A stretch of 64,000 bases of DNA, from positions 160,001 to 224,000 of the forward strand of contig JAUVNS010000006.1 of assembly GCA_030599585.1 (NCBI GenBank), in the 5' to 3' direction. The translations under genes were made by a program, and so were the position numbers. Positions 11,066 to 49,808 of the stretch are shown one piece after another (within the stretch, counting starts at the first letter, position 1; every line of letters begins with the position of its first letter). The DNA comes from Promethearchaeota archaeon (lineage in GTDB: Archaea > Asgardarchaeota > Lokiarchaeia > Sigyniarchaeales > SOKP01). The notes under the pieces are model-generated. The model saw only the letters and a program-made list of their open reading frames with translations, did not search any database and was not told the DNA's origin.

Positions 11066-11108
11066 AAAAATGGTATTGATTTAATTAGAATTCCTTAAAC
11101 CTTAGCTA

Positions 11109-31126: not shown

Positions 31127-31978
31127 TTGTCAATCCCGATGTTTCTAGCATTGAGGGAAGGGTTAGAAGCTGTCTTAGTTGTGGTAATAATTTTATTATA
31201 CTTAAAAAAAACCAACCAAAAGTTTTATTATAAGTATGTATATTTAGGAATTCTTTTAGCAACAATTGCAAGCGTCGTATTTGCTATCATCTTCTCAATA
31301 GCATTTGGAGGATTTACTGGCATACCTGAAAAAATATTTGAGGGGACAACATTTATCATTTCAGGCATTTTTATATTAACATTAGTTTTATGGGTGAGTA
31401 AGGAAGGTCCAAAGATGAAAGAGAACCTTGAAGGAAGATTAGAAGAATCTATTAATACGCAAAAGGTATTTTCGATTTCTATCACTACATTTATTATTAT
31501 AATTAGAGAAGGAATTGAATTAGTCCTACTCACAACAGGGGCTGCTTCTATAGGTTCTTTAAATCAAGGAAACGTTATATTAGGGTCTATCATTGGTTTA
31601 GCAATCTCGATTCTCATTGGATTTTTAATATTTTACAGTATAAAATCCATAAATTTGAGAACCTTTTTTAAAATAACAAATGTAATGCTAATATTATTCG
31701 CTGCTGGGTTAATTACGTATGGTATCCACGAATTTATTGAAGCGGGAATAATTAATCCGATTATTGAAGAAGTATGGAATATTAAGCATATTTTACCTGA
31801 AAAATTTCCCGATGGAAACCCCGCAACTCCTGAATTTTTAGAGATTATAGGCGCCCTACTAAAAGCTCTCTTTGGATATAATGCTAATCCTGCTTTGCTA
31901 GAAGTAATTATTTATCCGGTGTTATTAGTTTCAATAGGTATAATTTCAGCCCTGGTATGGAAACGTAATAACCATTAA
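31127..31978 (+). CDS. FTR1/EfeU-family high-affinity iron permease
   Basis: Two REGxE motifs (LREGLE, IREGIE), plus FAAGL...GIHEF.EAG and LFGY. Confidence 0.93.
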   Translation: MSIPMFLALREGLEAVLVVVIILLYLKKTNQKFYYKYVYLGILLATIASVVFAIIFSIAFGGFTGIPEKIFEGTTFIISGIFILTLVLWVSKEGPKMKENLEGRLEESINTQKVFSISITTFIIIIREGIELVLLTTGAASIGSLNQGNVILGSIIGLAISILIGFLIFYSIKSINLRTFFKITNVMLILFAAGLITYGIHEFIEAGIINPIIEEVWNIKHILPEKFPDGNPATPEFLEIIGALLKALFGYNANPALLEVIIYPVLLVSIGIISALVWKRNNH

Positions 31979-31992
31979 AAGAGCTTGTTTAT

Positions 31993-33051: not shown

Positions 33052-33131
33052 GAACTGATACCCTACTTATATTTTTATTCGTGTTGTACTTCTAAATTAA
33101 AAAAAAAAAAAAATTTTATTTCTATAATTTA

Positions 33132-34316
33132 TTACCTTTTACGTTTGACAACGCGTACGATAATTCCGATTGTTACTATCGATGCCATTCCTAACATAAT
33201 TACCGAAAACCCATCAATAAATGGAGGTTCTGTTGTAGGTGCCGTACTTAAATACAAAGTCTTCCATGCTGCCGTAATGTACTTAAATTCGTGGTCGTGG
33301 TCGTAATTTCCATCGTAAATTGAGAGGGCAAACTTTATTGTATCTCCAAGCGACATAGCCTTATCAATAACTGCGTTACTCACTGCTAAATCTCGTTCTA
33401 CCTCTAGACTCCAGCCAGCGCCATCGTGATTGGCTTTAGCTTCAATAAAGTATCGTTCTTCAGAACTAAGTGGTGATGGAAAGATTCCGAAAGCAGTATA
33501 TTCACTATCGCCAGATCTCTTTCGCGATTCTGTATCTAAATACTCGTTTTCAGCAAAAGAGAAATCATGTGAGATGACAGTTGCTGCTATAGCGCTGGTG
33601 TTCGTGCTAACAGACCATCTATATTTTCCTGTCGCATTAGCGACATAGTAGACTTGATCTCCTACAACACCACCCATATCTGAAAGGTCCCATATATCCC
33701 AATTAGAGCCTGTATAGTTTTCTTGATAGTAAATCGCTGTATGGGCTGCAACTGGAAGACCGTTGTAAGTTCCTGCACTATCTCCAGTATTAAAAGCAAC
33801 TCCATGTCGTGGAACAACTATGTGTTTTTCGCCTTCAGAATCTGTTCTTGCCGCTTTCCAATGCCAATGATCAGCCGTACCACTTGTTGTAGCGCCATTA
33901 GTCGATGTATTCATGCACGGAGCATCCATATCGTTTAAACCCTCTATAAGGATCATTGCAGATAAACGATCTTCATGACCTTCGATAGTATTATTCTCTG
34001 TTGGATCAGTCCAATTGAAAAAAAGTCTTATTTTAGTATCAGTGACAACAGCTTTCATTGTTACAATACGTTGGTTTACTGGCATTACTGTAGCACTTGG
34101 AGTAGCTGTCAATGAAAATGTCTGACTCGTTGCAGTTGACCAAAATGCTTCATTATCGAGACCATCAACAGTAATATCACCAGATACATAAGGTGCTGTG
34201 ATATTAGGTGATTGTGCTCCGACAAGAGCGGCATTTGAGACAAATAGAATCGTAGATATTCCGAATATCGCTAACAAGATTATACTAAATCTTTTATTTT
34301 TCATTTTCTTCAACAA
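33132..34316 (-). CDS. Exported ethylbenzene-dehydrogenase-type (EB_dh, DOMON-like) heme-binding protein with C-terminal membrane anchor
   Basis: Signal peptide, ITVDG..NE..W, FNWTDPT, EDRLS, ADHWHWKA and WSLEVER. C-terminal IDGF + TM + RKR sorting-type tail. Confidence 0.78.
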   Translation of the reverse strand: MLKKMKNKRFSIILLAIFGISTILFVSNAALVGAQSPNITAPYVSGDITVDGLDNEAFWSTATSQTFSLTATPSATVMPVNQRIVTMKAVVTDTKIRLFFNWTDPTENNTIEGHEDRLSAMILIEGLNDMDAPCMNTSTNGATTSGTADHWHWKAARTDSEGEKHIVVPRHGVAFNTGDSAGTYNGLPVAAHTAIYYQENYTGSNWDIWDLSDMGGVVGDQVYYVANATGKYRWSVSTNTSAIAATVISHDFSFAENEYLDTESRKRSGDSEYTAFGIFPSPLSSEERYFIEAKANHDGAGWSLEVERDLAVSNAVIDKAMSLGDTIKFALSIYDGNYDHDHEFKYITAAWKTLYLSTAPTTEPPFIDGFSVIMLGMASIVTIGIIVRVVKRKR

Positions 34317-34477: not shown

Positions 34478-34494
34478 AGTTTCAATTTTAAACT
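34478..34494. promoter_or_regulatory. 17-bp quasi-palindromic operator candidate AGTTTCAATTTTAAACT
   Basis: Exact reverse complement at 35011-35027, 15/17 copy at 41674-41690, and 12-nt core at 39711-39722. Confidence 0.5.
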
Positions 34495-34606: not shown

Positions 34607-34864
34607 TCACACTGTTATTTCGAAAATGCTCACGCGCTTATCAATTATATCCTTGGATTTTTTAATAAAATTTTTCTCTTGGAGCTTCTTAAGAGCGTAG
34701 GCGGTTGTTCGTTTTGGAAGAAGTGTTTTTTCTATAATTTCTTGCTGTTTCAGAGGACCTCTTTGTTTCAAAAGATATAAAATAAATTTACTTGAGGGAG
34801 ATAATGAAAACAAATTGGTTCTTTGTTCGTAATCTCCGATGAAGTATTTGTCCTCTACAATCAT
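34607..34864 (-). CDS. MarR-like winged-helix regulator
   Basis: LSPSSKFILYLL...GPLKQQEI...TLLPKRTTAYALKKL...DKR. Confidence 0.85.
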   Translation of the reverse strand: MIVEDKYFIGDYEQRTNLFSLSPSSKFILYLLKQRGPLKQQEIIEKTLLPKRTTAYALKKLQEKNFIKKSKDIIDKRVSIFEITV

Positions 34865-35540
34865 GAAACCATCTAGATTAAAATTATTTGAATGTTTATT
34901 ATTTTGTTCAATTTATAATAAAGATTATGTATATTTAAGATTATGGCTAATTGATTAATAAGTTTTTCTAATTTAGCCCGTGTTTCAAATAGCTACAATT
35001 TTGAAAAAAAAGTTTAAAATTGAAACTTTTCAATTCTTCAAAATATTGATGAAAAAGAGAGTTATAGCACAATTAACAACATATTTAGCATGATCGAGTA
35101 CAATTCACCTAATAATAGTTTCTTACTGTCAAATTTTAAGTGTTTTTATTGTTTCTAGTAATATAATAGATTGAAATAAATTATTTGGTCCAGATTAAAG
35201 TGCGCATAAATCTTTTAGAACCGAATTTCCTTTCTTATCAGGTTAGAACTTTTCCTTAGTTTGGGAAAATCCGAGAGATTTATTATTTTTTTAATAAAAC
35301 AACAATTATGCAAAACTTGCACATATCTTTATAATGCTCCGTAATGTTTTCATTCTTCATAAAAGGAGAATATTAATTCAAATTAATCTTGAACTTCGCC
35401 CTTAGCATTATATTTTAAAAAAAACTAACTTCTTGCGATTACTTTTTATTTGAATTTAATTCTCCTTTACTCCTTTCTTATTCTGTTAATAGAAAGCTAA
35501 AAAAGTTAAAAATAGAATTTTAAACCATTGAAAATAATTA

Positions 35541-36920
35541 TTATTGGTAAAATTCACAATCGTTTAGGAGTTGGGATATGTCCATTACTTTTAGTGGGGA
35601 ATTATCTTCATTTGCTACTTGGAATAAGTTATTCTTACAAAATACGCATGAGCTCACTAAAACTTCGGCATTTGTTTCAACTGCTTCTTTCAATCTATCC
35701 TCACGAATTCTAATCATACAAGTACGAGTCTCAGCTATTCTATCTCTTCCTACCTCACCAGCAATGTCTCCATATAGCGCTTTAACTCCGCCCCCCGCCC
35801 CACAACACCAGGACATATCTCTATTATGTTTCATTTCGTATAATTTAACGCCTTCAATCATATTTATTAATTCTCTCGGTTCCTCAAACACGCCACAATA
35901 TCTCCCTAAATGGCACGGATCGTGATAAGTTATCAATAAGGGATTTTCTTTTGTTCGCTTGGTATATCTTATTTTAAGGTTTTTTTCCTTTACCTTTTTT
36001 AACACAAATTGAGTTAGATGGAAAATATCAAATCCTAGATTTCCACCAGCAAACTTAGAATATTCTAAAGTGAAAGTAGAAAAACAACCCGAGCAAGAAA
36101 AGACAACTTCAGAAACACCGCTTTCACGAATCATTTTATAATTATGTTTAATGAGCTCAATAGCCTCATCCTCTAAACCTGTGCGAAATAATACAGATCC
36201 GCAGCATCTTTCTTCTGGAAAAACATAAAATTCTATTCCTAGTTTTCCTAATACATCACTTGTAGCATTGACGAGTTCTCTATTTCGATAAGAGGAAGTA
36301 CAACCAATAAAATAGCCAACACTATCACTATTTCGTTTTCCTTTTTTTAAATCCTCAGATGAAAACTTTTCATCTATTAAATCAAGTTCCCGTTTTGTTC
36401 GTTCATAGGCTTGTTTACCAAATTCAGAACTCTCACACCAATTAAATCTATCACTATGATTTTCAAGATAAGGATTATTATTTTTAAGAATTGAATCTCG
36501 CATCCCTTTTAACCTGGCAGGTATAGCACCTCTTTTGACCACTGCTTTACGAAAATTTTGAAACACTTCAAGAGTATCGATTCCTACGGGACAAACAGTT
36601 TTACAATTCCCACAGAGCATACAGCGAAAAACAGAAGGTATTATCTCTTCCTTATCAAACTTAATATCCTTACGATCTAGTGCTTTGATAATTCTATTTC
36701 GCCCACCCGCATAATCAGTTTCTGACCAAGAGGTGTTATAAACTCTGCACACGTGACGACAATACCCACAATGAGTACAACGGTCATAACCGAATTTTTC
36801 TTCTTTTTCCTTTGTTTTTGGTTCAATTAGATTCTCTCTAGAAGGAGAAACTAAACCAGCAACGGGTGGACCTGTTGTAATTACATTTTTAATATCATTT
36901 TTTTCCTTGCCTTCACTCAT
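35541..36920 (-). CDS. (Fe-S)-binding protein of the HdrD/GlcF family (2x[4Fe-4S] + two CCG domains)
   Basis: CTHCGYCRHVC, CMLCGNCKTVCP, ERCCG, TYHDPCHLGR, WCCGAGGG and SSCVFC. Confidence 0.92.
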   Translation of the reverse strand: MSEGKEKNDIKNVITTGPPVAGLVSPSRENLIEPKTKEKEEKFGYDRCTHCGYCRHVCRVYNTSWSETDYAGGRNRIIKALDRKDIKFDKEEIIPSVFRCMLCGNCKTVCPVGIDTLEVFQNFRKAVVKRGAIPARLKGMRDSILKNNNPYLENHSDRFNWCESSEFGKQAYERTKRELDLIDEKFSSEDLKKGKRNSDSVGYFIGCTSSYRNRELVNATSDVLGKLGIEFYVFPEERCCGSVLFRTGLEDEAIELIKHNYKMIRESGVSEVVFSCSGCFSTFTLEYSKFAGGNLGFDIFHLTQFVLKKVKEKNLKIRYTKRTKENPLLITYHDPCHLGRYCGVFEEPRELINMIEGVKLYEMKHNRDMSWCCGAGGGVKALYGDIAGEVGRDRIAETRTCMIRIREDRLKEAVETNAEVLVSSCVFCKNNLFQVANEDNSPLKVMDISQLLNDCEFYQ

Positions 36921-37047: not shown

Positions 37048-38562
37048 TTATTTTTTAAAAGATATTTTATACAATAATTTTGCTGTCGTAAAAAGTAATG
37101 AAATCCGCCAATGTTTCATTCTAGCTTTAACTAAACGATAGGAGTTAAACATATCTTTGGAGTCTAGCTTATTCTTCAATATTTTTCTATTTTTTACGAC
37201 TTCTCGTCTGTATTTTCGCAGATAAAAGGTATTAACAATCCCTATTGTGTAGAGACTATCTCCTTGTTTGAATGCTTCCTTGGACAAATCGTGCAAGAAT
37301 GCCTTGACGGTAAAAAATTCGATTGGTCTAGTAATATCTGAGAGACCAAATATTTTTACTCGGCTCCATCCCTCTTCCCCAGAAATCGTATAAGTTGCGA
37401 TAGGAAATTTATACTTACTGGCTCTTTTTATATAACTTTCATAAAAGGATAACAACCTTTCATTTGAAATCCAGTATTCTTGAAATATGATATTCCTACT
37501 TGTCCTTCCAATTGCTACTTCTGCATCGCTGATATCGCGCCATTTTTCTTTTAAATAAGAATCATCTATTCTAACACCTTTAAAATTTTGAGCTATTCTA
37601 TCAGACCATGAAACACTTCTAACTGTTTCTTCTGGATCATCATAAAAAACGGCCCAAACTAACCAATCTTGACTTGGAAAATTGATGTGTGCATATTGTT
37701 CAAACTTTCGTTCTGAAATTGAAAGAAAAAATGGTTTATCTTGTGGGTTACTTACTAAGGCTTTATAATAATTAATTGCATCTTCAAGAGAGGTAAAACC
37801 GTAGCCTTCAATTTCTAAAGAAGTTTTTAAATTTGTAAGAGATAACACTACCTCCGAGATAGCGCCGTATATACCATAAGTTCCAGTAATATCATCAAGC
37901 GATATTTCTCCATTCGAATCCTTCGAAATATGTTCGATTTTCCCATTAGGAAGAACTAAAGTTAACGATATTATTGAATCGGCCATTGTGCCATACTTTG
38001 GCACCCCAATTCCCGCTTTCCCAGGAGTTGCTATGAAACCACCAACACAAGAAGTTTTGAAGCTAGTAGGATAAGCTTTAGGTGCAAGTCCGTAATCTGA
38101 AAGGTTTTCCATTAAGTTTAACCATGATATTCCTGCCCCCACTCTGACCGTCATTTTTTCAGTGTCGACATGCTCAACTTTGTTAATGCGACGCATATCG
38201 ATTATCACTCCACCCTTTGCAGGAGTTGCTGAGGAAAAGCAAGATGTACCAGCAGCTCTTATTGTTATAGGTAATGAGAGTTCCCAACACTTCTTGATTA
38301 ATAGAGATAAGCTCTCTGTATCCGCGGGTCTAACAATGATGCTAGCAAGATAATTCTTTTTGAATTTGTAATGATAGGATGGTAAAGATGTAAGGTCAGC
38401 AGATGCTGATTCAAGCTCGTATCTATTAGTGCTTACATGGTATGGGGAAATGAATTCTTTAACTATTTCTTCGAAATTACGCTTTTTTCCCCTCTTCTTT
38501 ACTTTTTCTTGAGTTTGGGTTATCTTCCCGTTTATTTTTTCCTTGACTAATGTCTCATTCAT
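37048..38562 (-). CDS. FAD-binding oxidoreductase (GlcD / D-lactate dehydrogenase-like)
   Basis: VRP, RAAGTS, GGVIIDM.RIN, YPTS..TSCVGGFIAT and GTYGIYGAISEV. Upstream of the HdrD-like gene. Confidence 0.85.
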   Translation of the reverse strand: MNETLVKEKINGKITQTQEKVKKRGKKRNFEEIVKEFISPYHVSTNRYELESASADLTSLPSYHYKFKKNYLASIIVRPADTESLSLLIKKCWELSLPITIRAAGTSCFSSATPAKGGVIIDMRRINKVEHVDTEKMTVRVGAGISWLNLMENLSDYGLAPKAYPTSFKTSCVGGFIATPGKAGIGVPKYGTMADSIISLTLVLPNGKIEHISKDSNGEISLDDITGTYGIYGAISEVVLSLTNLKTSLEIEGYGFTSLEDAINYYKALVSNPQDKPFFLSISERKFEQYAHINFPSQDWLVWAVFYDDPEETVRSVSWSDRIAQNFKGVRIDDSYLKEKWRDISDAEVAIGRTSRNIIFQEYWISNERLLSFYESYIKRASKYKFPIATYTISGEEGWSRVKIFGLSDITRPIEFFTVKAFLHDLSKEAFKQGDSLYTIGIVNTFYLRKYRREVVKNRKILKNKLDSKDMFNSYRLVKARMKHWRISLLFTTAKLLYKISFKK

Positions 38563-38604: not shown

Positions 38605-39636
38605 TTACTTACTTTTCATTCTATTCTTACGCAATTTCGCTTCTACATACCACAATAAAACTCCTATTGATACAGGTATGATCAAACTCATTACAATGGG
38701 TAGAATGTTTATTATTAAATCATCTAAAGCTGGGGGAACTATTATAAGACCTAAAATGTATCCTGTCCACCAGCAAGCCAATGTAATATATCCCGTAAGT
38801 TTTGCATATTTACGCTCAGCTGCAATTCCAAACAACATACTAAGAAGCCCAGTAAATAATCCCGTAGCACCTAAAATGATATGGCTTACATGGACCCAAA
38901 AAGGCTCAAACGAAAACCAAATATCTATATTATTTAAATCAAATTGGTTAATCAAAGAAATAGCGTTGATCAGGGTTAATATCCAAGAGGCTCCACTAAA
39001 TATTCCGTGGATTTTCACAAATTTGTTTTCGTTTATTAATACGAGGATGGTTCCAACAGAAAGAAGTATCAAAGCAGACATACCGAGGAGTAATCCAAAG
39101 TGATCAAATATTTCGAACTCGGGTTCAGGTGGGGCAACACCTCCAACACTAAATCCAATTATAATATGAGAAAAAGCAGGTGCTCCACTTGCAGAATTGT
39201 TTCCTGCTAGAATGAAAAGATAGTAAAAACCGTCTGTTTCAGGAATCGTAATATTAAAAGTAATAATCATCGAGTTTGGATTCGAATCTTTATCTTCTCC
39301 AGAGCCATCCAATATTTTATCAGTAGTAGGAAGAATCTTTATATCCTTATTCTGCATTACGGTTGTGGTTTCATTAGGAGCTTGAACAAATAAAAAGGTT
39401 CCGGTAGCAGTTACATTAAAAATAATAACATCTGAAGTGGTTACATTAAAGATAATAGCATCCGAGGGATTTACGGTAGTGCCATTTATATCAGCTGAAA
39501 TTGTATATCCTCCGGGTACTGTATGACATATGTCATGGTCTAATACTTGGTCTGGAGTTGCTGTTCCATTCAGGACCAGTAAAAATATTGGTAGACTAAT
39601 AATTACGATAAATAGTACGAAAATTTTCTTTTTCAT
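38605..39636 (-). CDS. Exported HxxCH/beta-sandwich domain fused to a His-containing multi-TM (cytochrome b561-like) domain
   Basis: Signal peptide, then DHDICH and a beta-rich domain with a 10-aa duplication (SDAIIFNVTT/SDVIIFNVTA). About 5 TM follow, with KIHGIF and WVHVSHII His residues. Confidence 0.6.
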   Translation of the reverse strand: MKKKIFVLFIVIISLPIFLLVLNGTATPDQVLDHDICHTVPGGYTISADINGTTVNPSDAIIFNVTTSDVIIFNVTATGTFLFVQAPNETTTVMQNKDIKILPTTDKILDGSGEDKDSNPNSMIITFNITIPETDGFYYLFILAGNNSASGAPAFSHIIIGFSVGGVAPPEPEFEIFDHFGLLLGMSALILLSVGTILVLINENKFVKIHGIFSGASWILTLINAISLINQFDLNNIDIWFSFEPFWVHVSHIILGATGLFTGLLSMLFGIAAERKYAKLTGYITLACWWTGYILGLIIVPPALDDLIINILPIVMSLIIPVSIGVLLWYVEAKLRKNRMKSK

Positions 39637-39840
39637 TATCCTTACATTGTATTGTGATAATTTTAATTGATGTTATAAAACAATTAAAGGTTTTAATTAA
39701 GAATTATAAGTCAATTTTAAACATTGATGCTAAAATTGCACCTTTTTTCTAAATGCATCCATAAGAGAGAAAGAGTTAGGTTCTTGTTTATAAATTTTTA
39801 TGATAATCTTTTTTAACACTAGTTATTTCATTTTTTTATA

Positions 39841-41553
39841 ATGAAGTTTGATCACTATACACTCAAGAAGATATTTCTTATTGATTTAATAGTGATCCTA
39901 AGTGTTGTTATTGTTATTCCTCTCGTTTTAGATTTATTTGGGTTAAATGTCAAAATATTGGTCATTTCTTTTATAGGGAACCTTCTGATTATTTCAACTA
40001 TCATAATTACGATTTTTGATCTATTTTATCTTTTAAGGCTTAAACGAAACATTTATCTATTATCTTCTTTAAGCATGGCTTTGTCAATTTCTTTATTTTT
40101 CCTCCTTGAATATTGCTTTGTTAACGACTATTTTGATATAATATATGTTTGGAGCTATAATGAAACTACTCTCCCACTTGTATACAAATTTGTGGCAATT
40201 TGGGCTGGCGAAGCAGGTTCTATCATGACTTGGATGGTATTTAATACTATAGTTATTTTCTTCTATAGGCTCAAGAATCAAAATAGAGATGACACCGTCT
40301 TTATAATGTCAACTATAGTCTCAATGCTAATTTCTTCGGTCTTTCTCATAATTTTATTTTTCTATAACCCCTTTCAAACAGAGACCCCAATTATATTTCC
40401 TAACGGGAGAGGATTAAATTCACTTTTAATATCACCATTTATGATATGGCATCCATTATTTACATTTATTGCTTACGCAACTTTCTTAATTCCTTTTACT
40501 ATTTCAATTATTAGATTATTAAAACCAAACTTATCGCTACAAAATCCCTACCAAAAATCTTTTTACGATTTTAGCTTGAAGTTTGGATGGTTAGTTTTGA
40601 CTTTAAGTATTGGATTGGGAGCTTATTGGGCAAAAGTAGCGTTAACATGGGGTAGGTATTGGGGATGGGATCCTGTTGAGACTGTTTCTCTTATCCCATG
40701 GTTCCTTAGTACAGCTTACTTTCATACAATAACTTTTAAAAAGACTAATAGTAAACTAGTAAAAATTAATGGTATAATGATTTTTTTATCAATAATTTTT
40801 TCTACTTTAATAACGCGGGGAGGAGGTTTAACATCATTACATGCCTTTACAGGTGAAAGTAATCTCATTATCTTGACTTTAATAGTTGGTTCCATATTGG
40901 TTGTGTGTTCACTTTATGTGATTTATGAAACACTGAATTCTTTATCTGAAAATTACAAGAAAACAAGACTCTTTTTAGATTATTTAAGTTATTTATGTTT
41001 GGTTATGCTTGCCTTTGTTTGTATATTTGGCCTATTAATTTCTCCTCTTACATATTTCCTCTCTCTTTTTTCTAATATAAATGTCTTATATGTAGGAACG
41101 GACTACTTCATTTTAACAACATTGATTTTAGCTTCCGTATTGGTCATATCATTAGTTTTTTGTTCTTTTTATGGGACATATAAGCTTAAAGTAATAGCTA
41201 TTATATTAGTTATCGGAGTAATAGTACAAACTATACTCTCCTTTGTGTTATTTTCCATTTCCGGTGTCTGGATGAATCCAGTGATTTCTATATTTATTAT
41301 CGCATTACTATCTTCGATTCTGAGACTAATAAAAGATTTTGACATAAATACGGGTTTAAAGCAGTATTTAAGAATAAATTCGAAAACATATGTGCATATT
41401 GGTTTATCGTTAATTTTAATTGGGACGCTAATTAATCCAGGGATTTGGATATTTCAGGATATTTTCTACATTTCGGGGTTTATTTTTTTTATGAGCGGAA
41501 TAATTCCCTCTATTTTTATCTTTTTTTTTCTCAGAAGAAATAAGTTAAAGTGA
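39841..41553 (+). CDS. ccmF: Cytochrome c maturation heme lyase CcmF
   Basis: IWAGEAGS, GRGLNSLL, WHP, WGRYWGWDPVE (WWD domain), AYFH and TRGG..SLHAF. Confidence 0.92.
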   Translation: MKFDHYTLKKIFLIDLIVILSVVIVIPLVLDLFGLNVKILVISFIGNLLIISTIIITIFDLFYLLRLKRNIYLLSSLSMALSISLFFLLEYCFVNDYFDIIYVWSYNETTLPLVYKFVAIWAGEAGSIMTWMVFNTIVIFFYRLKNQNRDDTVFIMSTIVSMLISSVFLIILFFYNPFQTETPIIFPNGRGLNSLLISPFMIWHPLFTFIAYATFLIPFTISIIRLLKPNLSLQNPYQKSFYDFSLKFGWLVLTLSIGLGAYWAKVALTWGRYWGWDPVETVSLIPWFLSTAYFHTITFKKTNSKLVKINGIMIFLSIIFSTLITRGGGLTSLHAFTGESNLIILTLIVGSILVVCSLYVIYETLNSLSENYKKTRLFLDYLSYLCLVMLAFVCIFGLLISPLTYFLSLFSNINVLYVGTDYFILTTLILASVLVISLVFCSFYGTYKLKVIAIILVIGVIVQTILSFVLFSISGVWMNPVISIFIIALLSSILRLIKDFDINTGLKQYLRINSKTYVHIGLSLILIGTLINPGIWIFQDIFYISGFIFFMSGIIPSIFIFFFLRRNKLK

Positions 41554-41885
41554 AAATCTATGGAATAGATTAAGAAATGTATCTTTTTAGTAGTTCTCTT
41601 AATTTTAATTTAGATAAATCTCATAATATAATCGTTTGAAATTAATTCAAATTGAAACTCAATTATCGATCATAGTTTAAGAATGAAACTGTGGCCTATT
41701 TGATTGTTTAAATCAACCCAAATTAATAAAAGTTATAAATTATAACAAATTTTTTCAAATTAAGCAATTTTATAATATATTTGATAAGGTCAAATTCAAA
41801 ATGAACTTTATCAAACTATTAAAAAAATAGAAATACAACTAAAGAGCATTTAAATCTTTAGTTTTTTAGGGAAAAAGGGGTTTTA

Positions 41886-44800
41886 ATGAAAATAAACAAG
41901 AAAATTTCATCTTTTTTAATCACGACGATACTGTTTTTATCGATTACGGGGCTTGTAATAGCCAGAACGAGTCAATTTAGTGATTTTACAGGAGAAGGGC
42001 ATTCAAGCTGTCACGGAAATATAACAGAAAGCACAAGTGGGTATATTTCTTTATCGTCAAGTTCAGGATCATCTGTAGCGCCAAGTGAAACTTTTACAAT
42101 AACAATTCAAATATTAAGTTTTAGTGAGGCTCTCAATGAAAAAAAAAAAACTACAGTAGGGTTTCCAAGTGGATCTCCTGGTAGAGGAGATAATAAGGAT
42201 TTTTCCTTTAACACAACTCAAGAAGAAATCGATATAGATAGTTCTGGGAATTCAGTTACATTAGATTTTCAAGTTACAGCACCAGCAACTGAACAAACCT
42301 ATACTCTCCATTCTGATGCTATTTACAAAGGCGGCTCAACCTATTTTGCTCATGGTAATTTTACTGTTACTGTGGAAGTGCAAAATAATCCACCTCAATT
42401 TAGTAATATAGTTGAGAGTAGCGATCCTTTAGAATTTGGCCAACAAGAAACTTTTCAAGTCGATGTGACTGATTCTGAAACAAGTGTAGACACTGTCTTT
42501 ATTGAATTAGAAGGTACTAACTACACTATGTCTAATACTGTTGGAGATACATTCGAGTATAACTGGATTTCAAATACACTTGGCACAAAAAATTATGTTT
42601 TTTATGCAAATGATACAGATGGAAGTTGGAATTCAACAAGTGGAAATATAAATATAATTGATACTACTAATCCAACTTTGACAAATTTAATTGAAAGCGC
42701 CGATCCTTTAGAGTTAGGTCAAATAGAAACGATTCAAATCAATGCAACCGATTTGTCTGGTATCAGTCAAGTTATGATAGAGATTGAAAGTGCAAATTAC
42801 ACAATGGTAAATATTGGTGGAACTATATGGGAATACGACAGCTGGACTCCAGTTACCACCGGATTGAAACTATATACTATTTTTACGAACGATACTGAAG
42901 GTAATTGGAATTCTCTAAGTAATTCAATAACTGTTCAAGATACGGTACAACCCTCGTTGACAAGTCTAGTAGAAAGTGCAGACCCTTTAGAGTTAGGACA
43001 AACAGAAACGATCCAAATCAATGCAACAGATTTATCTGGTATTAGTCATGTTTTAATCGAAATCGCCAGCACGAATTACAGCATGAACCAAATTGATACA
43101 AACACTTACCAATTTAATACATGGAATCCGTCATCAGTGGGAGTAAAAGGTTACACCATTTATGCAAACGATTCTAAAGGAAATTGGAATTCTCTAAGTA
43201 ATTCAATAACGGTTCAAGATACTACTCTTCCATCTCTTTTTAATTTAGTTGAAATTACTGATCCTATAGAGATAGGCCAAACAGAAACGATTCAAATTAA
43301 CGCAACTGATTTATCTGGTATTAGTCATGTGCTTATAGAAATTGGTGGTATAAATTATACGATGACAAAAATCAGTAGCGCAACTTGGGAATACAATAGT
43401 TGGACGCCGTTGTCTGCCGGTTTAAAATCTTATAAGATTTTTGTGAATGATACTGAAGGCAATTGGAACTCTTTAAACGATTCAATAACCGTTCAAGACA
43501 CAAATCAACCTTTGTTAACGAATTTGGTAGAAAGTGCTGACCCTTTAGAGTTAGGACAAACAGAAACAATCCAAATCAATGCAACTGATTTATCTGGTAT
43601 TAGTCATGTGTTTATCGAAATTGGTGGTATAAATTATACATTAACAAAAATCAATAGCGCAACTTGGGAATACAATAGTTGGATACCAACAACAGTAGGA
43701 TTAAAATCTTATACTATTTATGCTAATGACACTGAAGGTAATTGGAATTCAGTATTAAACGATATCACAGTAGAAGACACAAAAGCACCGAAATATTCCG
43801 ATTTAATTGAAAGTGCTGATCCACTCCCATATGGTCAGAATGAAACAATTTCCATTAATGTTTATGATAATCCAGGTTCTGGAGTGAAGGAAGTAATTCT
43901 TGAATATAACAATATTAATCACACGATGATTTTTATGGGATTCAGCACCTGGTCATGGCCAAATTGGAAACCATCATCCACAGGAACCTTTAATTATACC
44001 ATTTACATGATAGATAATAGCGATAATTTAAATACGACAACAGGTTCTATTGAAGTTATCATATCTTCGGGTCCGACAATTCAAAACATATCTAAAAGTG
44101 CAGATCCTTTAGAGCTAGGCCAAATAGAAACTATTCAGGTTGATGTTAATGATACTGATGGAATTAGTGTTGTATTTATAGAAATCGGGGGACAGAACTA
44201 TACGATGGGAAACATTGGTGGAAGTACATATGAATATTCCTGGTCACCTAATTTAACTGGGACAAAATTGTTTACAGTATACGCTAATGATTCTTTAAAT
44301 AATTGGAATCAATTAAGTAACAGCATCTATGTTCAAGACACAATACCTCCAAATTACGCAAATTTAATAGAAAATAGCGATCCTGTTGAATTGGGAAATA
44401 GCGTAACAATTTCTATTGACGCTACAGACTTATCAGGCATAAATCAAGTTAAAATTGAATTTGATGGCGTGAATTATACTATGTCTAATCTAGGAGGAAA
44501 TATGTGGTCAAACGATACTTGGATTCCTGGGACTGTTGATGTCTTTTCATACACTATATTTATTCAAGATAAATCAAATAATTGGAATAGCACAAGTGGA
44601 AGTATTGAAGTAATAGACACAATATCGCCTGAATTATCAAATTTATATGAGGAATACGAACCAATAGAATTAGGCCAGAGTCAAACGATTCAGGTTAATA
44701 TCAGTGACTTAGCTTCTATAAGTTTAGTACTACTTGAATTTCAGGGAGTAAATTATACTATGACAAAAATAGGTAGCCAAACTTGGGAATACAACAACTT

Positions 44801-46427
44801 AATTCCAATTGGAATAGGTTTAAAAGTCTATTCAATTTACGCAAATGATTCGAGTAATAACTGGATTTCTTTAACTGCCAATTTTACAGTTGTAGATACT
44901 AATGCTCCTGTATTATCTAATTTATTTGAAAATGCAGATCCACTGGAACTAGGACAGACGGTTACAATTCAAATCACTGCAACTGATTTATCTGGTATTA
45001 GCTACGTACTAATAGAGCTTGATAGCGTGAATTATACCATGGCATTTATAGGTGGCAACACATGGGAGTATAATAGTTGGACGCCAATTACCTCCGGATT
45101 AAAATTGTATACTATTTACGCAAATGATACTAACGGAAATTGGAATTCTTTCAATAGCGATATTACTATAGTAGATTCGAGTGGACCATCTTTAGGTAGT
45201 TTGTCCGAAAGTGCAGATCCACTAGAACTAGGACAGACAGTAACAATTCAAATCAATGCTACTGATTCATCTGGTATCAGTCATGTGCTAATAGAACTGG
45301 ATAGCGTGAATTATACCATGGCATTTTTAGGTGGCAACACATGGGAATATAATAGTTGGACTCCAAGTACTACGGGATTGAAATTGTATACAATTTACGC
45401 AAATGACACGGAAGGAAATTGGAATTTATTAATCGATTCAATAACAGTTCAAGATACAATAATACCGGTCTTATCAACCCTTATAGAAAGTGCTGATCCA
45501 TTAGAACTAGGGGAGACAGAAACTATTCAAATTAATGCAACTGATTTATCTGGTATTAGCTACGTGCTAATAGAGCTTGATGGTGTGAATTATACCATGG
45601 CATTTATAGGTGGCAACATATGGGAATATAATAGTTGGACACCAATTACCTCCGGATTAAAACTGTATACAATTTACGCAAATGATACTAACGGAAATTG
45701 GAATTCTTTCAATAGCGATATTACTATAGTAGATTCGAGTGGACCATCTTTAAGTAATTTATTTGAGAATGCGGACCCGTTAGAATTAGGACGGACGGAA
45801 ACTATTCAAATTGATGTTAATGATTTATCAGGAATCAGTCATGTGTTAATAGAAATCAGTGGTTTAAATTACACGATGACAAACATCAGTAGCGCAACTT
45901 GGGAATACAATAGTTGGACGCCGTTGTTTACCGGTTTAAAATCTTATAAGATTTTTGTGAATGATACTGAAGGTAATTGGAACACTTTAAGCGATTTTAT
46001 CACCGTTCGAGACACAAATCAACCTTTGTTAACGAATTTGGTAGAAAGTGCAGACCCTTTAGAGTTAGGACAAACAGAAACAATCCAAATCAATGCAACT
46101 GATCTATCTGGTATCAGTCACGTGCTAATTGAAATCAGTGGTTTAAATTACACGATGACGAAAATTAGTAGTGCAACCTGGGAATATAATAATTGGATAC
46201 CAACAAAAGAAGGATTAAAATCTTATACTATTTATGCTAATGACACTGAAGGTAATTGGAATTCAGAAAGTGATACAATTATGGTGAATACGCAAGGTGG
46301 TAATGAGAATACCGGTATGTCTGAGGAATTTCTTGATTTAATTGTTATATTTAGTACATTCGGTAGTTTAGGCGTTTTTTCGTTAGTCTTAGTGATTAAA
46401 CTAAGACCTAAACGTTTTATTAAGTAA
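41886..46427 (+). CDS. Giant surface protein: N-terminal HxxCH (Reeler-like) domain, 14 Ig-like repeats, C-terminal TM anchor
   Basis: Signal peptide, GHSSCHG, 14 copies of an ESADPLELGQ...NATDLSGI...NYTM...W...YANDT.GNWN repeat, then a C-terminal TM and basic tail. Confidence 0.85.
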   Translation: MKINKKISSFLITTILFLSITGLVIARTSQFSDFTGEGHSSCHGNITESTSGYISLSSSSGSSVAPSETFTITIQILSFSEALNEKKKTTVGFPSGSPGRGDNKDFSFNTTQEEIDIDSSGNSVTLDFQVTAPATEQTYTLHSDAIYKGGSTYFAHGNFTVTVEVQNNPPQFSNIVESSDPLEFGQQETFQVDVTDSETSVDTVFIELEGTNYTMSNTVGDTFEYNWISNTLGTKNYVFYANDTDGSWNSTSGNINIIDTTNPTLTNLIESADPLELGQIETIQINATDLSGISQVMIEIESANYTMVNIGGTIWEYDSWTPVTTGLKLYTIFTNDTEGNWNSLSNSITVQDTVQPSLTSLVESADPLELGQTETIQINATDLSGISHVLIEIASTNYSMNQIDTNTYQFNTWNPSSVGVKGYTIYANDSKGNWNSLSNSITVQDTTLPSLFNLVEITDPIEIGQTETIQINATDLSGISHVLIEIGGINYTMTKISSATWEYNSWTPLSAGLKSYKIFVNDTEGNWNSLNDSITVQDTNQPLLTNLVESADPLELGQTETIQINATDLSGISHVFIEIGGINYTLTKINSATWEYNSWIPTTVGLKSYTIYANDTEGNWNSVLNDITVEDTKAPKYSDLIESADPLPYGQNETISINVYDNPGSGVKEVILEYNNINHTMIFMGFSTWSWPNWKPSSTGTFNYTIYMIDNSDNLNTTTGSIEVIISSGPTIQNISKSADPLELGQIETIQVDVNDTDGISVVFIEIGGQNYTMGNIGGSTYEYSWSPNLTGTKLFTVYANDSLNNWNQLSNSIYVQDTIPPNYANLIENSDPVELGNSVTISIDATDLSGINQVKIEFDGVNYTMSNLGGNMWSNDTWIPGTVDVFSYTIFIQDKSNNWNSTSGSIEVIDTISPELSNLYEEYEPIELGQSQTIQVNISDLASISLVLLEFQGVNYTMTKIGSQTWEYNNLIPIGIGLKVYSIYANDSSNNWISLTANFTVVDTNAPVLSNLFENADPLELGQTVTIQITATDLSGISYVLIELDSVNYTMAFIGGNTWEYNSWTPITSGLKLYTIYANDTNGNWNSFNSDITIVDSSGPSLGSLSESADPLELGQTVTIQINATDSSGISHVLIELDSVNYTMAFLGGNTWEYNSWTPSTTGLKLYTIYANDTEGNWNLLIDSITVQDTIIPVLSTLIESADPLELGETETIQINATDLSGISYVLIELDGVNYTMAFIGGNIWEYNSWTPITSGLKLYTIYANDTNGNWNSFNSDITIVDSSGPSLSNLFENADPLELGRTETIQIDVNDLSGISHVLIEISGLNYTMTNISSATWEYNSWTPLFTGLKSYKIFVNDTEGNWNTLSDFITVRDTNQPLLTNLVESADPLELGQTETIQINATDLSGISHVLIEISGLNYTMTKISSATWEYNNWIPTKEGLKSYTIYANDTEGNWNSESDTIMVNTQGGNENTGMSEEFLDLIVIFSTFGSLGVFSLVLVIKLRPKRFIK
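42385..46290 (+). repeat. Intragenic tandem repeat: 14 units of about 279 nt (93 aa)
   Basis: GAAAGCGCCGATCC at 42693 and GAAAGTGCAGACCC at 42972 are 279 nt apart. 14 DPLE-like motifs counted. Boundaries are approximate. Confidence 0.9.
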
Positions 46428-46495
46428 TAATTACTTTTTATTTTTTTAATTACAATTTTTATTGAGTCTTAAATTAACCTTTATTATAGTTAATT

Positions 46496-47209
46496 ATGAA
46501 TTCCTCTAAAACGATTTTATTAGAATGTGAAAACATTTCTAAACAATATGGTTTTTTCTTCGCTCTGAACAAAATATCTTTTATTTTAGACGAGAACTCC
46601 ATTTTGGGGGTAATTGGTGCTAATGGTGCAGGAAAAACGACTCTTATTAGAATCTTATCTGGTCTGACTTCTCCAACATCTGGTACAATTGCCATAAAAG
46701 GAAGGAATTATAAGACAGATACTAAACGTATCAAACAAATTATTGGAACAATCACTGACAAATCGTTTTTATATGAAGAGCTAACAATTTATGAAAACCT
46801 AAAATTCTACAGTAAATTGTACTCCATGTACAATAAAAATGAATTTAAAGAAAAAATTGAACATTACGCAAAGAAATTTAATCTTTCTGACTGGATTTTT
46901 GAACCAATTAGTAACTTATCAACTGGAATGAAACAAAAAGTGGAAATAATCCGAAGTTTGATCCACAATCCATCAATCTTGCTTTTAGATGAGCCGTTTT
47001 CTGGACTAGACTTTACTACCATAAAATTATTGATAAAAATTTTAACAGAATTAAAAGAAAAAGAAAATTTAACATTAATTATAGCAACTCATAAAATTGA
47101 GGTAGTTCAGGAGATCAGCGACACAATTTTAATTTTAAAAAAGGGTAAGATAAGTAAATTTGCTCCAAAAAACGAGATAGATATAAGTAAAATTGAATCC
47201 TACTTTTGA
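46496..47209 (+). CDS. ccmA: Heme exporter ABC ATPase CcmA
   Basis: GANGAGKTT, LYEELTIYENL, LSTGMKQK and LLLDEPFSGLD, in a ccm context. Confidence 0.85.
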   Translation: MNSSKTILLECENISKQYGFFFALNKISFILDENSILGVIGANGAGKTTLIRILSGLTSPTSGTIAIKGRNYKTDTKRIKQIIGTITDKSFLYEELTIYENLKFYSKLYSMYNKNEFKEKIEHYAKKFNLSDWIFEPISNLSTGMKQKVEIIRSLIHNPSILLLDEPFSGLDFTTIKLLIKILTELKEKENLTLIIATHKIEVVQEISDTILILKKGKISKFAPKNEIDISKIESYF

Positions 47210-47221
47210 GGTGTGAATTGA

Positions 47222-47947
47222 GTGAAAAACAAAAAAAGAACTGCTAAATCTGGCTTAAAACTCTTCATAACAATTCTGCAAAAGGATATTAAATCCGAAA
47301 TTAGGCAAGTCAATGACATCTTTTCGATTATTTTGTTTGGAGTTATTTCAATATTTATTTTTTCTTCCTCATATAACACAATTAATCTAGGTGGTATGAT
47401 GCCTATTGAGATATTTGTTATTCAAATATGGCTAATTATTTTCTTTACACTTATTTTTATTATGATCAAGCTATTTGTTCAAGAAAAAGAGAAAGGAACG
47501 CTGGACGGACTTACAACTTCTCCAGTTTCTAATACTATTCTTCTGATTAGTAAAGTGGTTTTTTGTTTTATTTTATTAAGCCTGATTGAATTGATATTAC
47601 TCCTTTTTAGCTTTTTTATCTCTGTTCCTTCGGTTCAAGCTTTGAATATTAATGAATTTCTGTATTACGTTATGATAGGAATTGTGTTACCTACTCTGGA
47701 CATATCTATTTGTGGAACCTTAGTTTCCGCTTTATCAATGTATTCAAAAAATAAGTCTTTCGTCTTACCTTTATTACTATTCCCAATAATACTTCCAATA
47801 ACATCTCCCATAATATCGCTAAATATAAAACTATTAGAAGGTGAACTAATTTCAATGGTATTTATTGAAATTTTGTTTTTAGTGGCTCACGCTATGCTGA
47901 TGTTTTCGATTTTAGTATTAGTTTCGGAAGAACTATTATCGGAATAG
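47222..47947 (+). CDS. ccmB: Heme exporter permease CcmB
   Basis: KDIKSEIR, FVQEKEKGTLDGL..SP and LPLLLFPIILP. Confidence 0.87.
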   Translation: MKNKKRTAKSGLKLFITILQKDIKSEIRQVNDIFSIILFGVISIFIFSSSYNTINLGGMMPIEIFVIQIWLIIFFTLIFIMIKLFVQEKEKGTLDGLTTSPVSNTILLISKVVFCFILLSLIELILLLFSFFISVPSVQALNINEFLYYVMIGIVLPTLDISICGTLVSALSMYSKNKSFVLPLLLFPIILPITSPIISLNIKLLEGELISMVFIEILFLVAHAMLMFSILVLVSEELLSE

Positions 47948-47953
47948 TATAAA

Positions 47954-48301
47954 TTAACTACATTGCACAAGAATTTGTGTTGCGTTTAAGTATAATAATG
48001 AGTTAAACAAGCCCATTACAACTACTTGAATCCCATCCTCTACATCATCAGGAACAGTAATATCTGAAACATCAATAAGAATCTTATCGTCACCTTGTGT
48101 TAAGTTAAAATTTCCCCCGGAATACCCTTCTACTATTCCAATTACTTGAATCTCTTGATTATGGTATCTTGAAGGATCTTCAAGAACTTGGGAAATTTGA
48201 AGATAGGGTCTGAAATTAAAAATCAAAATTACCGTAATGATGCTGATAGCTCCAATGATCCCTAAACCTGCAATAATACGCGATTTTTTCACAATTAACA
48301 C
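47954..48301 (-). CDS. ccmE: Heme chaperone CcmE (Cys-type, ending ...QILVQCS)
   Basis: N-terminal TM, PYLQISQV, OB-fold pattern (IQVIGIV; PD....G.QVVVMG) and ATQILVQC, matching the A..IL.KC motif of Cys-type CcmE. Confidence 0.8.
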   Translation of the reverse strand: MLIVKKSRIIAGLGIIGAISIITVILIFNFRPYLQISQVLEDPSRYHNQEIQVIGIVEGYSGGNFNLTQGDDKILIDVSDITVPDDVEDGIQVVVMGLFNSLLYLNATQILVQCS

Positions 48302-48304
48302 TGA

Positions 48305-48448
48305 TTATTTACTTTGATTTAATCTCTTAAGCCTTTTTTCTATTTTTCTTTTTGACAATTTAGGATACAAGATTAGAATTATGATTATTAACCAAAATAA
48401 CACGTAGCTTATGCTTATTGTGGTTATATCTAAGATTAACTCGCTCAT
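48305..48448 (-). CDS. ccmD: CcmD-like small membrane protein (not in the ORF track)
   Basis: MSELILDITTISISYVLFWLIIIILILYPKLSKRKIEKRLKRLNQSK: one TM plus a basic tail. ATGA overlap with the ccmC stop, and located between ccmC and ccmE. Confidence 0.75.
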   Translation of the reverse strand: MSELILDITTISISYVLFWLIIIILILYPKLSKRKIEKRLKRLNQSK

Positions 48449-49152
48449 CTTCCTTCCTCCATTTTAATATATAAAATTTCTTGTAATTTTTCTTTTGCTA
48501 TATCTAACTCCTTCAATTCACGAATCAAGTAGATAAATAGTAGAGTCATAGCAATTAAGTTAAAAAATAGAATGAAAAGTTTAATAGAATCCCAATAAAT
48601 ATTTCCTGGTTCCCCGGGATTTGGATTTATGAGGGGATGTAAACTTGTGAAAAGAATTGCTGAGAGATAACTTAAAGGGACGGTCGGAAAAAAAACAATT
48701 CCTAAAATCGCAGAAAGTTTAGCCTTTTTCTCCCTTTCTTCGATAAAGTTTCTAAATATTAAATATGCGACATAGGAGAAGAATAATATGAGCGTTGTAG
48801 TTTGTCTGGCATCACTCCACTGCCAGTATATATTATTATATGAGCCCGAAGTCGCATTAAACCACAGTGACCCCGTTATTAACGTAAAGGCAACAAAAAA
48901 AACTCCAACTATTATGCTATTTTTTCCTAAATTACTCCAGTTCATCTTTTTTTGTTTAAGATATAATAGATGACCTATCAGGCTTACACCGAATGAAAAG
49001 TAAGACAACCAAGCAGCTGATACATGATAAAAAAATATTATATATATAATTCTTTGAAACGATGCTAAACCTAATATTAAGAATAAATTGAGTATTAATA
49101 ACATTAAAGAAACTATAAGAAGATATGAATTTTTTTTTAATTTATAATTCAA
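48445..49152 (-). CDS. ccmC: Heme exporter/lyase subunit CcmC
   Basis: FFYHVSAAW, TGSLW...YWQWSDARQTT (variant WWD) and SLHP. Confidence 0.87.
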   Translation of the reverse strand: MNYKLKKNSYLLIVSLMLLILNLFLILGLASFQRIIYIIFFYHVSAAWLSYFSFGVSLIGHLLYLKQKKMNWSNLGKNSIIVGVFFVAFTLITGSLWFNATSGSYNNIYWQWSDARQTTTLILFFSYVAYLIFRNFIEEREKKAKLSAILGIVFFPTVPLSYLSAILFTSLHPLINPNPGEPGNIYWDSIKLFILFFNLIAMTLLFIYLIRELKELDIAKEKLQEILYIKMEEGR

Positions 49153-49244: not shown

Positions 49245-49808
49245 TTAGAAGTTACCACATCCATCGCATTTACCGTCAAGATAGGCTTCACAGTCAACGC
49301 AGATATTACCGCAATTGTGCTCATTACTTTCGTTGCTAAAAAGATTAAGGGGTAAATATTTTGGTCTGATAAAATCCGAACCGAAGATTAATGCTGAATG
49401 TAATAATCCTTTTTTATTAGTTGGGCCGCAATGATTTACATATCTGTGTAGGACATCTAAACTCTGTCCTATGATCCCCATTATTAAATTGTATTGTCCC
49501 GTGACTTGTGCTAACAAAAAAACTCTTGGACATTCAGAATAGGAGTTAACAATATTTCTTATTTCCTCATAATTGCCCCATTCCATGAGTATAAACAGTG
49601 TTTTATAATTTACTTTGTTAATATTGATATTACCTTGAACCTTAAGAATGCCTTTATTTTCTAACTTTGCAATTCTTTTAGCGATTCCGGTATGGCTCAT
49701 AGTTTCATCGTCTTTTTTGAAGATAATATCTTTTAAACTTGTTAAACTCTCTCGACCGCTTTTAAAGAGCGCTTTTACAATTTGTTTATCTACGTTATCA
49801 AATTCCAT
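49245..49808 (-). CDS. Lrp/AsnC-family regulator with a Cys-rich C-terminal tail
   Basis: DNVDKQIV..L...GR, KRIAKLE..GIL, VTGQYNL, and C-terminal CGNICVDC.....KCDGC. Confidence 0.85.
   Translation of the reverse strand: MEFDNVDKQIVKALFKSGRESLTSLKDIIFKKDDETMSHTGIAKRIAKLENKGILKVQGNININKVNYKTLFILMEWGNYEEIRNIVNSYSECPRVFLLAQVTGQYNLIMGIIGQSLDVLHRYVNHCGPTNKKGLLHSALIFGSDFIRPKYLPLNLFSNESNEHNCGNICVDCEAYLDGKCDGCGNF

Follow-up and report, generated by a model that had tools for sequence, protein, structure and literature searches.

We describe a gene cluster for cytochrome c maturation (Ccm) in a Promethearchaeota archaeon (GenBank assembly GCA_030599585.1), together with two proteins encoded between its genes that carry H-x-x-C-H shortly after the signal peptide, the first Cys of CxxCH being exchanged for His. 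The stretch of DNA analyzed (the window) spans 64,000 nucleotides of contig C21 and belongs to a metagenome-assembled genome (MAG) of 4.85 Mb in 52 contigs (~32% G+C, 100% complete, 8.9% contamination). The region is best explained as an accessory island of this Promethearchaeota (Asgard, Lokiarchaeia-like) genome. It holds the only ccm cluster found there, and all window genes of the island are intact open reading frames (ORFs). From the sequence comparisons below, the best explanation of its content would be a co-adapted archaeal System I (CcmABCDEF) variant encoded along with its only substrates. The features on which the argument depends are:

35541..36920, minus strand: HdrD/GlcF-like Fe-S protein with two 4Fe-4S motifs and two CCG domains (Pfam CCG 8.9e-31, Fer4_8)
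37048..38562, minus strand: GlcD-like flavin adenine dinucleotide (FAD)-binding dehydrogenase (Pfam FAD_binding_4 1.3e-32; TIGR00387 glcD 4e-29, below its cut-off)
38605..39636, minus strand: membrane cytochrome candidate of 343 residues (signal peptide, H-x2-CH immunoglobulin (Ig)-like outer domain, four-helix transmembrane (TM) bundle, extra C-terminal TM helix)
39523..39537, minus strand: HDICH motif of the membrane cytochrome candidate, with His where CxxCH has its first Cys
39841..41553, plus strand: CcmF/NrfE-family haem lyase, short form of 570 residues (Pfam Cytochrom_C_asm 6.9e-28; TIGR00353 nrfE/CcmF 5.5e-46)
41886..46427, plus strand: surface stalk protein of 1513 residues (signal peptide, H-x2-CH domain at ~30-170, ~14 Big_7 Ig repeats with Pfam Big_7 at 4.5e-33, C-terminal TM anchor)
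42000..42014, plus strand: HSSCH motif of the stalk protein
46496..47209, plus strand: CcmA-like ATP-binding cassette ATPase (Pfam ABC_tran 2.3e-33; its place beside ccmB is kept in related loci)
47222..47947, plus strand: CcmB (Pfam CcmB 1.2e-10)
47954..48301, minus strand: CcmE variant ending QCS-stop (Pfam CcmE 6.9e-08)
48305..48448, minus strand: CcmD-like membrane peptide of 47 residues (Pfam CcmD 1.3e-05; 25.6 bits, equal to the cut-off)
48445..49152, minus strand: CcmC (Pfam Cytochrom_C_asm 4.1e-18; TIGR01191 ccmC 6e-21)

The Pfam and NCBIfam matches bear out the ccmF, ccmAB and ccmCDE identities given in an earlier note on this stretch (the CcmD-like peptide at the cut-off). The same holds for the absence of ccmH and ccdA, which that note had reported for the cluster: neither CcmH (PF03918) nor CcdA/DsbD_TM (PF02683) was found anywhere in the island genome.

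The HxxCH domain and the search for ordinary substrates

HDICH is encoded by cat-gac-ata-tgt-cat (read from 39537 to 39523) and forms residues 34-38 of the 343-residue protein, while HSSCH is encoded by cat-tca-agc-tgt-cac and forms residues 39-43 of the 1513-residue protein. Both motifs lie ~10 residues past the signal peptide, within the ccmF/ccmAB/ccmE-D-C cluster, and their coordinates and exported context agree exactly with the earlier note (signal peptides were read from the translations, as K-rich, hydrophobic N-termini). Both proteins are predicted to be exported to the outer face of the membrane. Neither motif has the two Cys (CxxCH, CXnCH or CxxCK) by which c-type cytochromes are recognized.

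The two proteins had been called otherwise dissimilar, which does not hold: hhalign shows the N-terminal domains of both to be homologous (probability 96.7%, E 3.8e-10). Since one homologous domain is shared, the occurrence of the same substitution in both is not an independent argument against decay, as the earlier note had proposed; the valid argument is conservation of the substitution across the sampled genomes. All 157 homologues of the 343-residue protein come from Asgard-type MAGs, and a search for related loci with alignment A1 returned matches solely in Promethearchaeota MAGs. Among 31 sequences of this family, reaching down to 47% identity, H34, C37 and H38 are invariant, as are His179, His210 and His252 of the membrane bundle. 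For residues 1-175 of the stalk protein a full HMMER search (1.84 billion representatives) gave 67 relatives, most of them proteins of ~200 residues with a signal peptide, the domain and a C-terminal anchor. An alignment of 49 relatives leaves Cys42-His43 and one Phe as the sole invariant positions. A His usually precedes the Cys by 2 to 7 residues (H-x(2-7)-C-H); a minority has a Cys upstream instead (CNNCH, CDTCH, CGACH, C-x-CH) and a few have neither. HxxCH is invariant in the 31 aligned sequences of the 343-residue family; across the domain as a whole only C-H is.

No Pfam or NCBIfam family covers the 343-residue protein or the N-terminal domain, and profile searches of the PDB with alignments A1 and A2 found no relative. 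The AlphaFold2 (AF2) model of the 343-residue protein (mean predicted local distance difference test score (pLDDT) 76.6) shows an Ig-like sandwich plus helices. The domain is best explained as an Asgard-specific Ig-like family with a single putative haem site ~10 residues after the signal-peptide cleavage site.

The whole genome was scanned for both motifs using a six-frame set of 7,969 ORFs (1.72 M residues). HxxCH occurs in 27 ORFs, and only the two in the ccm cluster have the motif and a signal peptide no more than 50 residues apart. CxxCH occurs in 38 ORFs, none of which resembles an exported cytochrome (most were assessed by N-terminus and motif context alone, a subset further). What the earlier note had seen in the window therefore extends to all six frames of this 100%-complete genome: no exported CxxCH protein was found, and the two exported HxxCH proteins are both in the ccm cluster. 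In addition, one multihaem cytochrome query, taken from another Asgard ccm locus, had no match in 135 genomes of the same family.

Several CxxCH proteins were considered as substrates and rejected: a ferric-reductase-like TM protein with a 4Fe-4S domain (C4:27057-28250), an HExxH peptidase (C34:248066-250036), a VWA protein (C20:332624-333793) and an HNH-like zinc-finger protein that has four CxxCH but no signal peptide (C21:155544-156509; Cytochrome_CBB3 match of 17 bits against a cut-off of 27). Two small zinc-ribbon membrane proteins were likewise rejected, one of which (128 residues) has CIHCH just past a hydrophobic segment. C49:28389-29408, with three CxxCH, was set aside (no Pfam match, no signal peptide, zinc-ribbon-like context).

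Sister-family orthologues and the altered Ccm machinery

For comparison, 400 Asgard genomes were searched for CcmE and, with alignment A2, for the HxxCH domain. Below, g1 denotes the genus of the island genome, f1 its family and f31 a sister Asgard family, while g12, f16 and f32 are other lineages. A motif census covered 30 loci per family, from which the membrane-anchored orthologue was recovered in 26 (f31) and 28 (f1). All 26 orthologues of f31 carry C-x(2-5)-CH. In f1, 26 of the 28 carry H-x2-CH or H-x4-CH and the remaining two have x-CH; further x-CH members are P0166, P0173 and a 296-residue protein in locus L008. In alignment A3 the His of H-x2/x4-CH occupies the same column as the first Cys of C-x2/x4-CH, CH is invariant, and the x2 and x4 spacing classes occur in both families. 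The f31 loci also repeat the arrangement of the island, with an exported domain and four-helix bundle beside GlcD-like and HdrD-like genes, and they encode small single-domain proteins with an anchor, besides ccmABC(D)E and ccmF. Because the His and the first Cys share a column and both spacing classes are present in both families, we read the domain as a putative cytochrome c-type haem site whose first Cys was exchanged for His in one lineage.

Presence of the domain closely follows presence of Ccm. The island is patchy in g1: CcmE is found in 11 of 42 genomes and the domain in the same 11, with none discordant. CcmE and domain are both present in 18 genomes of g12 (one further genome has a domain fragment only), and ~36 of the 39 CcmE-positive genomes of f31 carry the domain. 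The co-occurrence of domain and ccm genes is thus exact in g1 and near-exact in g12 and f31, as the earlier note would lead one to expect. CcmE and domain lie nearly always on one contig, 1-25 kb apart. In f16 and f32, CcmE is present and the domain was not found; here cytochromes with 7-8 CxxCH haem sites adjoin ccm. Genomes of g1 that have only a TM-only paralogue of the membrane protein (G236, G237, G248, G249, G265 and G268) have no CcmE, so that Ccm tracks the outer domain and not the dehydrogenase module.

An opposite substitution is seen in g12, at locus L022 (G189:C1:3291000-3309000). Two exported Ig-type proteins (ORFs 3713-5053 and 5284-7980) have CGSGH and CDTGH after the signal peptide, with the second Cys gone and the first retained. 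Tandem CcmF paralogues (8047-9831 and 9861-11627) and an x-CH membrane protein adjoin them. Judging by this arrangement, C-x-x-G-H may represent another non-canonical motif, served by a separate lyase.

The maturation genes themselves deviate too. The archaeal System I set is complete, with CcmA, CcmB, CcmC, CcmE and CcmF all matched in Pfam/NCBIfam. CcmE of f1 ends QCS-stop in 19 of 19 genomes, against CPSKY in f31, f16 and f32: the haem-binding Cys is kept and the PSKY tail, including its Tyr, is gone. The stop is TGA, TAG or TAA, and there is no conserved read-through. CcmF of f1 (570-594 residues) is without the outer domain of ~100 residues that f31, f32 and f16 have between the last helices, and retains the WWD motif (WGWDPVET) and the conserved His columns. 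The WWD region of CcmC is altered (SGSYNNIYWQWSDARQT; WQWSDARQT with an insertion of 4-5 residues and substitutions), with both conserved His retained. The comparison supports the view that the changes in CcmE, CcmF and CcmC go in step with the presumed substrate motif. Overall, the earlier proposal that this Ccm system is dedicated to proteins with His for the first Cys gains support from the aligned columns, the co-occurrence with CcmE, the lack of a canonical substrate and these changes.

Among the closest described systems is the archaeal System I of Methanosarcina acetivorans, which likewise consists of CcmA, B, C, E and F without CcmH, has Cys and not His as the haem residue of CcmE, and keeps the WWD domains of CcmC and CcmF with their conserved His (PMC9084895). 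In line with it, neither CcmH nor CcmI marks the island system (PF03918 was not found in the genome). Unlike in M. acetivorans, the island CcmE stops one residue past the Cys and has no Tyr, so that the archaeal CxxxY motif, called universal in that study (PMC9084895), is present in its Cys and absent in its Tyr. The island CcmF, one short polypeptide, has no C-terminal outer domain, and the presumed substrates are without the first Cys. The island also has a CcmD-like ORF, although CcmD is stated to be lacking in archaea (PMC9084895). CcdA (PF02683) was not found in the island genome; the related island of G228, a genome of f1, carries CcdA together with a thioredoxin-like reductant.

Weighing the readings

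We consider it probable that the two proteins would be real c-type cytochromes, matured by the co-adapted Ccm through a single thioether and feeding an outward electron conduit from the GlcD/HdrD-like dehydrogenase. Haem would be scavenged from outside, since HemB and HemC are absent. CcmABCD would then export it, loading the penultimate Cys of the tail-less CcmE (QCS), and CcmE would pass it to the short CcmF, which would make one thioether with the sole Cys of the motif, the next His serving as proximal iron ligand. Canonical System I has the haem engaged by the second Cys and the His, and the vinyl formerly held by CcmE goes to the first Cys. Here the upstream His would take the place of that Cys at the haem edge, where it may help to free haem from the CcmE thioether, act as a recognition element for CcmF, or bond the free vinyl.

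Deviant motifs with dedicated lyases have precedents, NrfEFG serving CxxCK and CcsA1 serving CX15CH in MccA. As in the island, a specialized CcmF/CcsA-family lyase is encoded beside its deviant-motif substrate; these substrates, however, keep both Cys and a general CxxCH system works alongside, whereas the island variant is the only system of its genome. The euglenozoan mitochondrial cytochromes c and c1 have AxxCH or FxxCH and a single thioether, made by a different enzyme (PMC8262978). They resemble the island proteins in retaining just the second Cys and the His, and in that the substitution is lineage-wide rather than sporadic. Differences are the replacement of the first Cys (Ala or Phe there, His here), the enzyme (the HCCS-like KCCS there, predicted to be Ccm here), the fold (class I cytochrome c there, an Ig-like sandwich in the AF2 model here) and the archaeal host.

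A number of points weigh against a single-thioether cytochrome. That haem is covalently bound to these proteins is something we infer, and a change from Cys to His, and not the reverse, is presumed because the motif is canonical in other lineages. Mean pLDDT drops to ~50 at residues 31-40, around the motif, although weak confidence is expected here because the model is an apo-model. Fold searches of the AF2 model (Foldseek PDB, VIA-align, ESM Atlas) returned generic Ig-like sandwiches and four-helix bundles alone and no known cytochrome fold; their Z of about 10-12 is in the noise range for helical bundles, and the searches link the model to no known cytochrome, cytochrome b561 or NEAT fold, with none of these thereby excluded. 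No conserved Met or His that could act as distal ligand is visible in the domain alignments. The upstream His varies in spacing and is missing in some members, so it is not strictly needed; because x-CH members exist, it is not indispensable in every protein. Furthermore, E. coli Ccm does not mature single-Cys variants, going by the title of a 2002 work (reference 27 in PMC4158909).

The absence of HemB and HemC, by which haem would have to be imported, also counts against haem use, but this objection is weakened because f31, with its CxxCH multihaem cytochromes, is equally without HemB (found in 1/135 genomes of f1, namely G228, and in 1/86 of f31). We therefore reject it as decisive evidence. 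Many of the genomes without HemB carry Ccm and cytochromes all the same. These Asgard lineages appear to be haem (tetrapyrrole) auxotrophs that would still build haem proteins, and since such auxotrophy is general among them it is no specific argument against haem use here. G228 itself has a complete siroheme-dependent (Ahb) haem operon ~10 kb from its ccm/H-x-CH island (L029, G228:C2:44001-64000), which also carries CcdA and a thioredoxin-like gene.

Of the alternatives, a His at the Cys1 position that bonds the vinyl covalently, giving one His-vinyl and one thioether bond and a new class of doubly linked haem c, seems to us possible though rather unlikely. The His stands exactly in the Cys1 column, in the x2 and x4 classes alike, it is invariant in the family of the 343-residue membrane protein, and with the Tyr tail of CcmE and the outer domain of CcmF both gone, it seems that the transfer step has changed. 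We know of no c-type cytochrome with a permanent His-vinyl link. The chemistry that two bonds would require, a His side chain bonding a haem vinyl, is nevertheless familiar from the His-vinyl haem link of cyanobacterial GlbN. In E. coli holo-CcmE, His130 also binds haem covalently (PMC9084895), though there the bond is a transient intermediate and here it would be permanent. Against two bonds speak the x-CH members, which have neither His nor Cys upstream (2/28 in f1, P0166, P0173 and the L008 protein), and the spacing of 2 to 7 residues; the sequence cannot reveal the bond.

Less likely still is that H-x-x-C-H binds another metal (Cu, Fe or Zn) or reversible haem, for example in a surface haem-capture relay, with Ccm otherwise employed. 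His and Cys are common metal ligands, haem synthesis is lacking, and the island holds an FTR1 iron permease and an EB_dh haem b protein. The domain, moreover, is an Ig-like sandwich for which no cytochrome fold was matched, and this is the fold class of the NEAT haem-binding domains. NEAT has no Pfam match in the domain, and the fold searches list generic Ig-like sandwiches only, by which unlisted families are not excluded. Such a role, however, fits poorly with orthologues that have a true CxxCH at the same position, alongside multihaem cytochromes and Ccm. The domain furthermore tracks CcmE strictly, unlike the TM-only paralogue, and the CcmF lyase would otherwise be substrate-less in the island genome.

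Decay can be asked of the same data: truncated CcmE, shortened CcmF and mutated motifs might be what is left of a cytochrome c system that began to lose its function once haem synthesis had gone. CcmE and CcmF are indeed shorter than those of relatives, HemB, HemC, CcdA and CcmH are missing, and the island is patchy (11/42 in g1). Yet the window ORFs are intact, as are the membrane-protein orthologues and CcmE across the sampled f1 genomes. The QCS end is reached in 19/19 genomes through three different stop codons, the motif residues H, C and H do not vary even at 47% identity, G228 pairs the same variant with a full haem pathway, and the CxxCH-bearing f31 is likewise without HemB. Decay is accordingly very improbable. 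We give even less credence to the idea that Ccm matures ordinary CxxCH cytochromes encoded elsewhere, with the HxxCH proteins as bystanders. A MAG of 52 contigs with 8.9% contamination and the 128-residue zinc-ribbon membrane protein with CIHCH right after its hydrophobic segment leave some room for it; the absence of an exported CxxCH protein from the six frames of a 100%-complete genome, the unmatched multihaem query in the 135 f1 genomes, and the phyletic and physical linkage to the HxxCH domain tell against it.

Proposed electron transfer, neighbouring genes and significance

Returning to cytochromes with a single thioether, the conduit is suggested by the conserved GlcD/HdrD-like neighbours and by a protein fusion. 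In three lineages the neighbours of the membrane protein are a flavoprotein of GlcD type and a CCG/Fe-S protein resembling HdrD. In the island this Fe-S protein (35541..36920) has TfrB/LdhH/GlpC/GlcF-like matches in NCBIfam, its equivalent is present in the f31 and g12 loci, and we infer that it is the cytoplasmic partner of the membrane cytochrome candidate. P0131, a metagenomic protein of 815 residues, has a signal peptide, an H-x3-CH domain, Ig repeats and one TM helix, fused to 4Fe-4S and CCG domains, so that a putative outer haem domain and an HdrD-like cytoplasmic module share one polypeptide. The 343-residue protein would join the two cytoplasmic proteins, via its His-bearing bundle (likely with haem b or o), to the outer haem domain, and electrons would run from the dehydrogenase to haem(s) on the invariant bundle His and on to the outer haem, or in reverse. 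The 1513-residue protein would hold a second haem domain well away from the membrane, at the tip of its 14-repeat stalk, where it could act as a tethered carrier of electrons or make contact with an external acceptor or partner. The two proteins may together pass electrons between an oxidation of the 2-hydroxyacid type and either a syntrophic partner or an external acceptor.

The nature of the bundle haem is hinted at by a second GlcD-like/HdrD-like pair in the island genome (G000:C20:33832-37182, L002). This pair comes with a TM-only paralogue of the membrane protein (202 residues), which has the same invariant His, no outer domain, and directly adjoins a haem o synthase (TIGR01473, 2.9e-63). 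With that neighbour, the four-helix bundle may bind haem b or o.

Coupling of a dehydrogenase to a helix bundle is known from HdrDE-type and GlcDEF/Dld-type enzymes, in which a cytoplasmic CCG/Fe-S protein and flavoprotein act with a His-bearing helix bundle. DOMON-cytochrome b561 (CYBDOM) proteins join a beta-sandwich domain that binds haem on the outside to a haem-carrying module in the membrane. The 343-residue protein resembles the former in its presumed dehydrogenase-bundle coupling and the latter in joining an outer sandwich domain to a TM module. It differs from HdrE and cytochrome b561 in that there is no sequence or fold match and its bundle has four helices with three invariant His; in contrast to CYBDOM its outer domain would hold covalent haem.

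In two related loci (L008, 5635-6861; L022, 965-2251), x-CH membrane proteins have as neighbour a fusion of a ferric-reductase-like TM domain with a 4Fe-4S dicluster domain, and the island genome encodes this fusion elsewhere (G000:C4:27057-28250). The fusion could belong to the same network as a further module that moves electrons across the membrane.

On its upstream side (31127-34316) the cluster is preceded by an FTR1-family iron permease, a 352-residue polytopic membrane protein without Pfam match, and an EB_dh protein; EB_dh proteins also flank the related island of G228. A regulator gene follows:

33132..34316, minus strand: EB_dh (DOMON-like haem b) protein, exported and C-terminally anchored (Pfam EB_dh 5.6e-15; signal peptide and C-terminal TM helix in the translation)
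34607..34864, minus strand: MarR-family regulator, candidate regulator of the island (Pfam MarR 2e-10)

The palindrome-like 17-bp site AGTTTCAATTTTAAACT occurs exactly at 34478-34494 and 35011-35027, and with two mismatches at 41674-41690 (0.18 expected by chance). Because its copies precede the EB_dh, MarR and stalk-protein genes, it is a candidate MarR operator that could co-regulate the island. A sigma-70 promoter and terminator scan of the region stayed at shuffle level, with a consensus that is not applicable to archaea. At the other end an Lrp/AsnC-like protein with a Cys-rich C-terminal tail (49245-49808, minus strand) adjoins ccmC, as in G263; its Lrp matches are weak. A haem-related role is possible because the siroheme decarboxylases AhbA and AhbB presumably share its fold family.

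In the literature we found no description of an HXXCH haem motif, nor of this system in work on Asgard/Lokiarchaeota cytochrome c maturation, haem or extracellular electron transfer. CxxCH counts underlie cytochrome c surveys and inferences on respiration and electron transfer in uncultured archaea, and this clade would score zero in them while apparently keeping a dedicated maturation system and surface haem proteins. A System I serving His-substituted single-Cys motifs would contradict the behaviour of the E. coli model. The matched changes in CcmE, CcmF and CcmC would provide a natural experiment on haem release from CcmE and on substrate recognition by CcmF, as well as a prokaryotic parallel to the long-standing puzzle of the euglenozoan single-Cys cytochromes.

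In its strongest form, which we hold to be doubtful, the interpretation is that these are natural, lineage-wide Asgard haem proteins made by a re-engineered Ccm, attached either through a thioether and a His-vinyl bond or through a thioether with the His catalytically freeing haem from CcmE. If true, this would constitute a new covalent haem linkage and a sixth mode of cytochrome c maturation, unseen by every CxxCH-based census, as well as an unrecognized route of extracellular electron transfer in cultured-relative Lokiarchaeia. These Asgard organisms live syntrophically, and the module suggested here, in which a GlcD/HdrD-like dehydrogenase would act with two haem proteins, one in the membrane and one on a surface stalk, would deliver electrons to partners or minerals.

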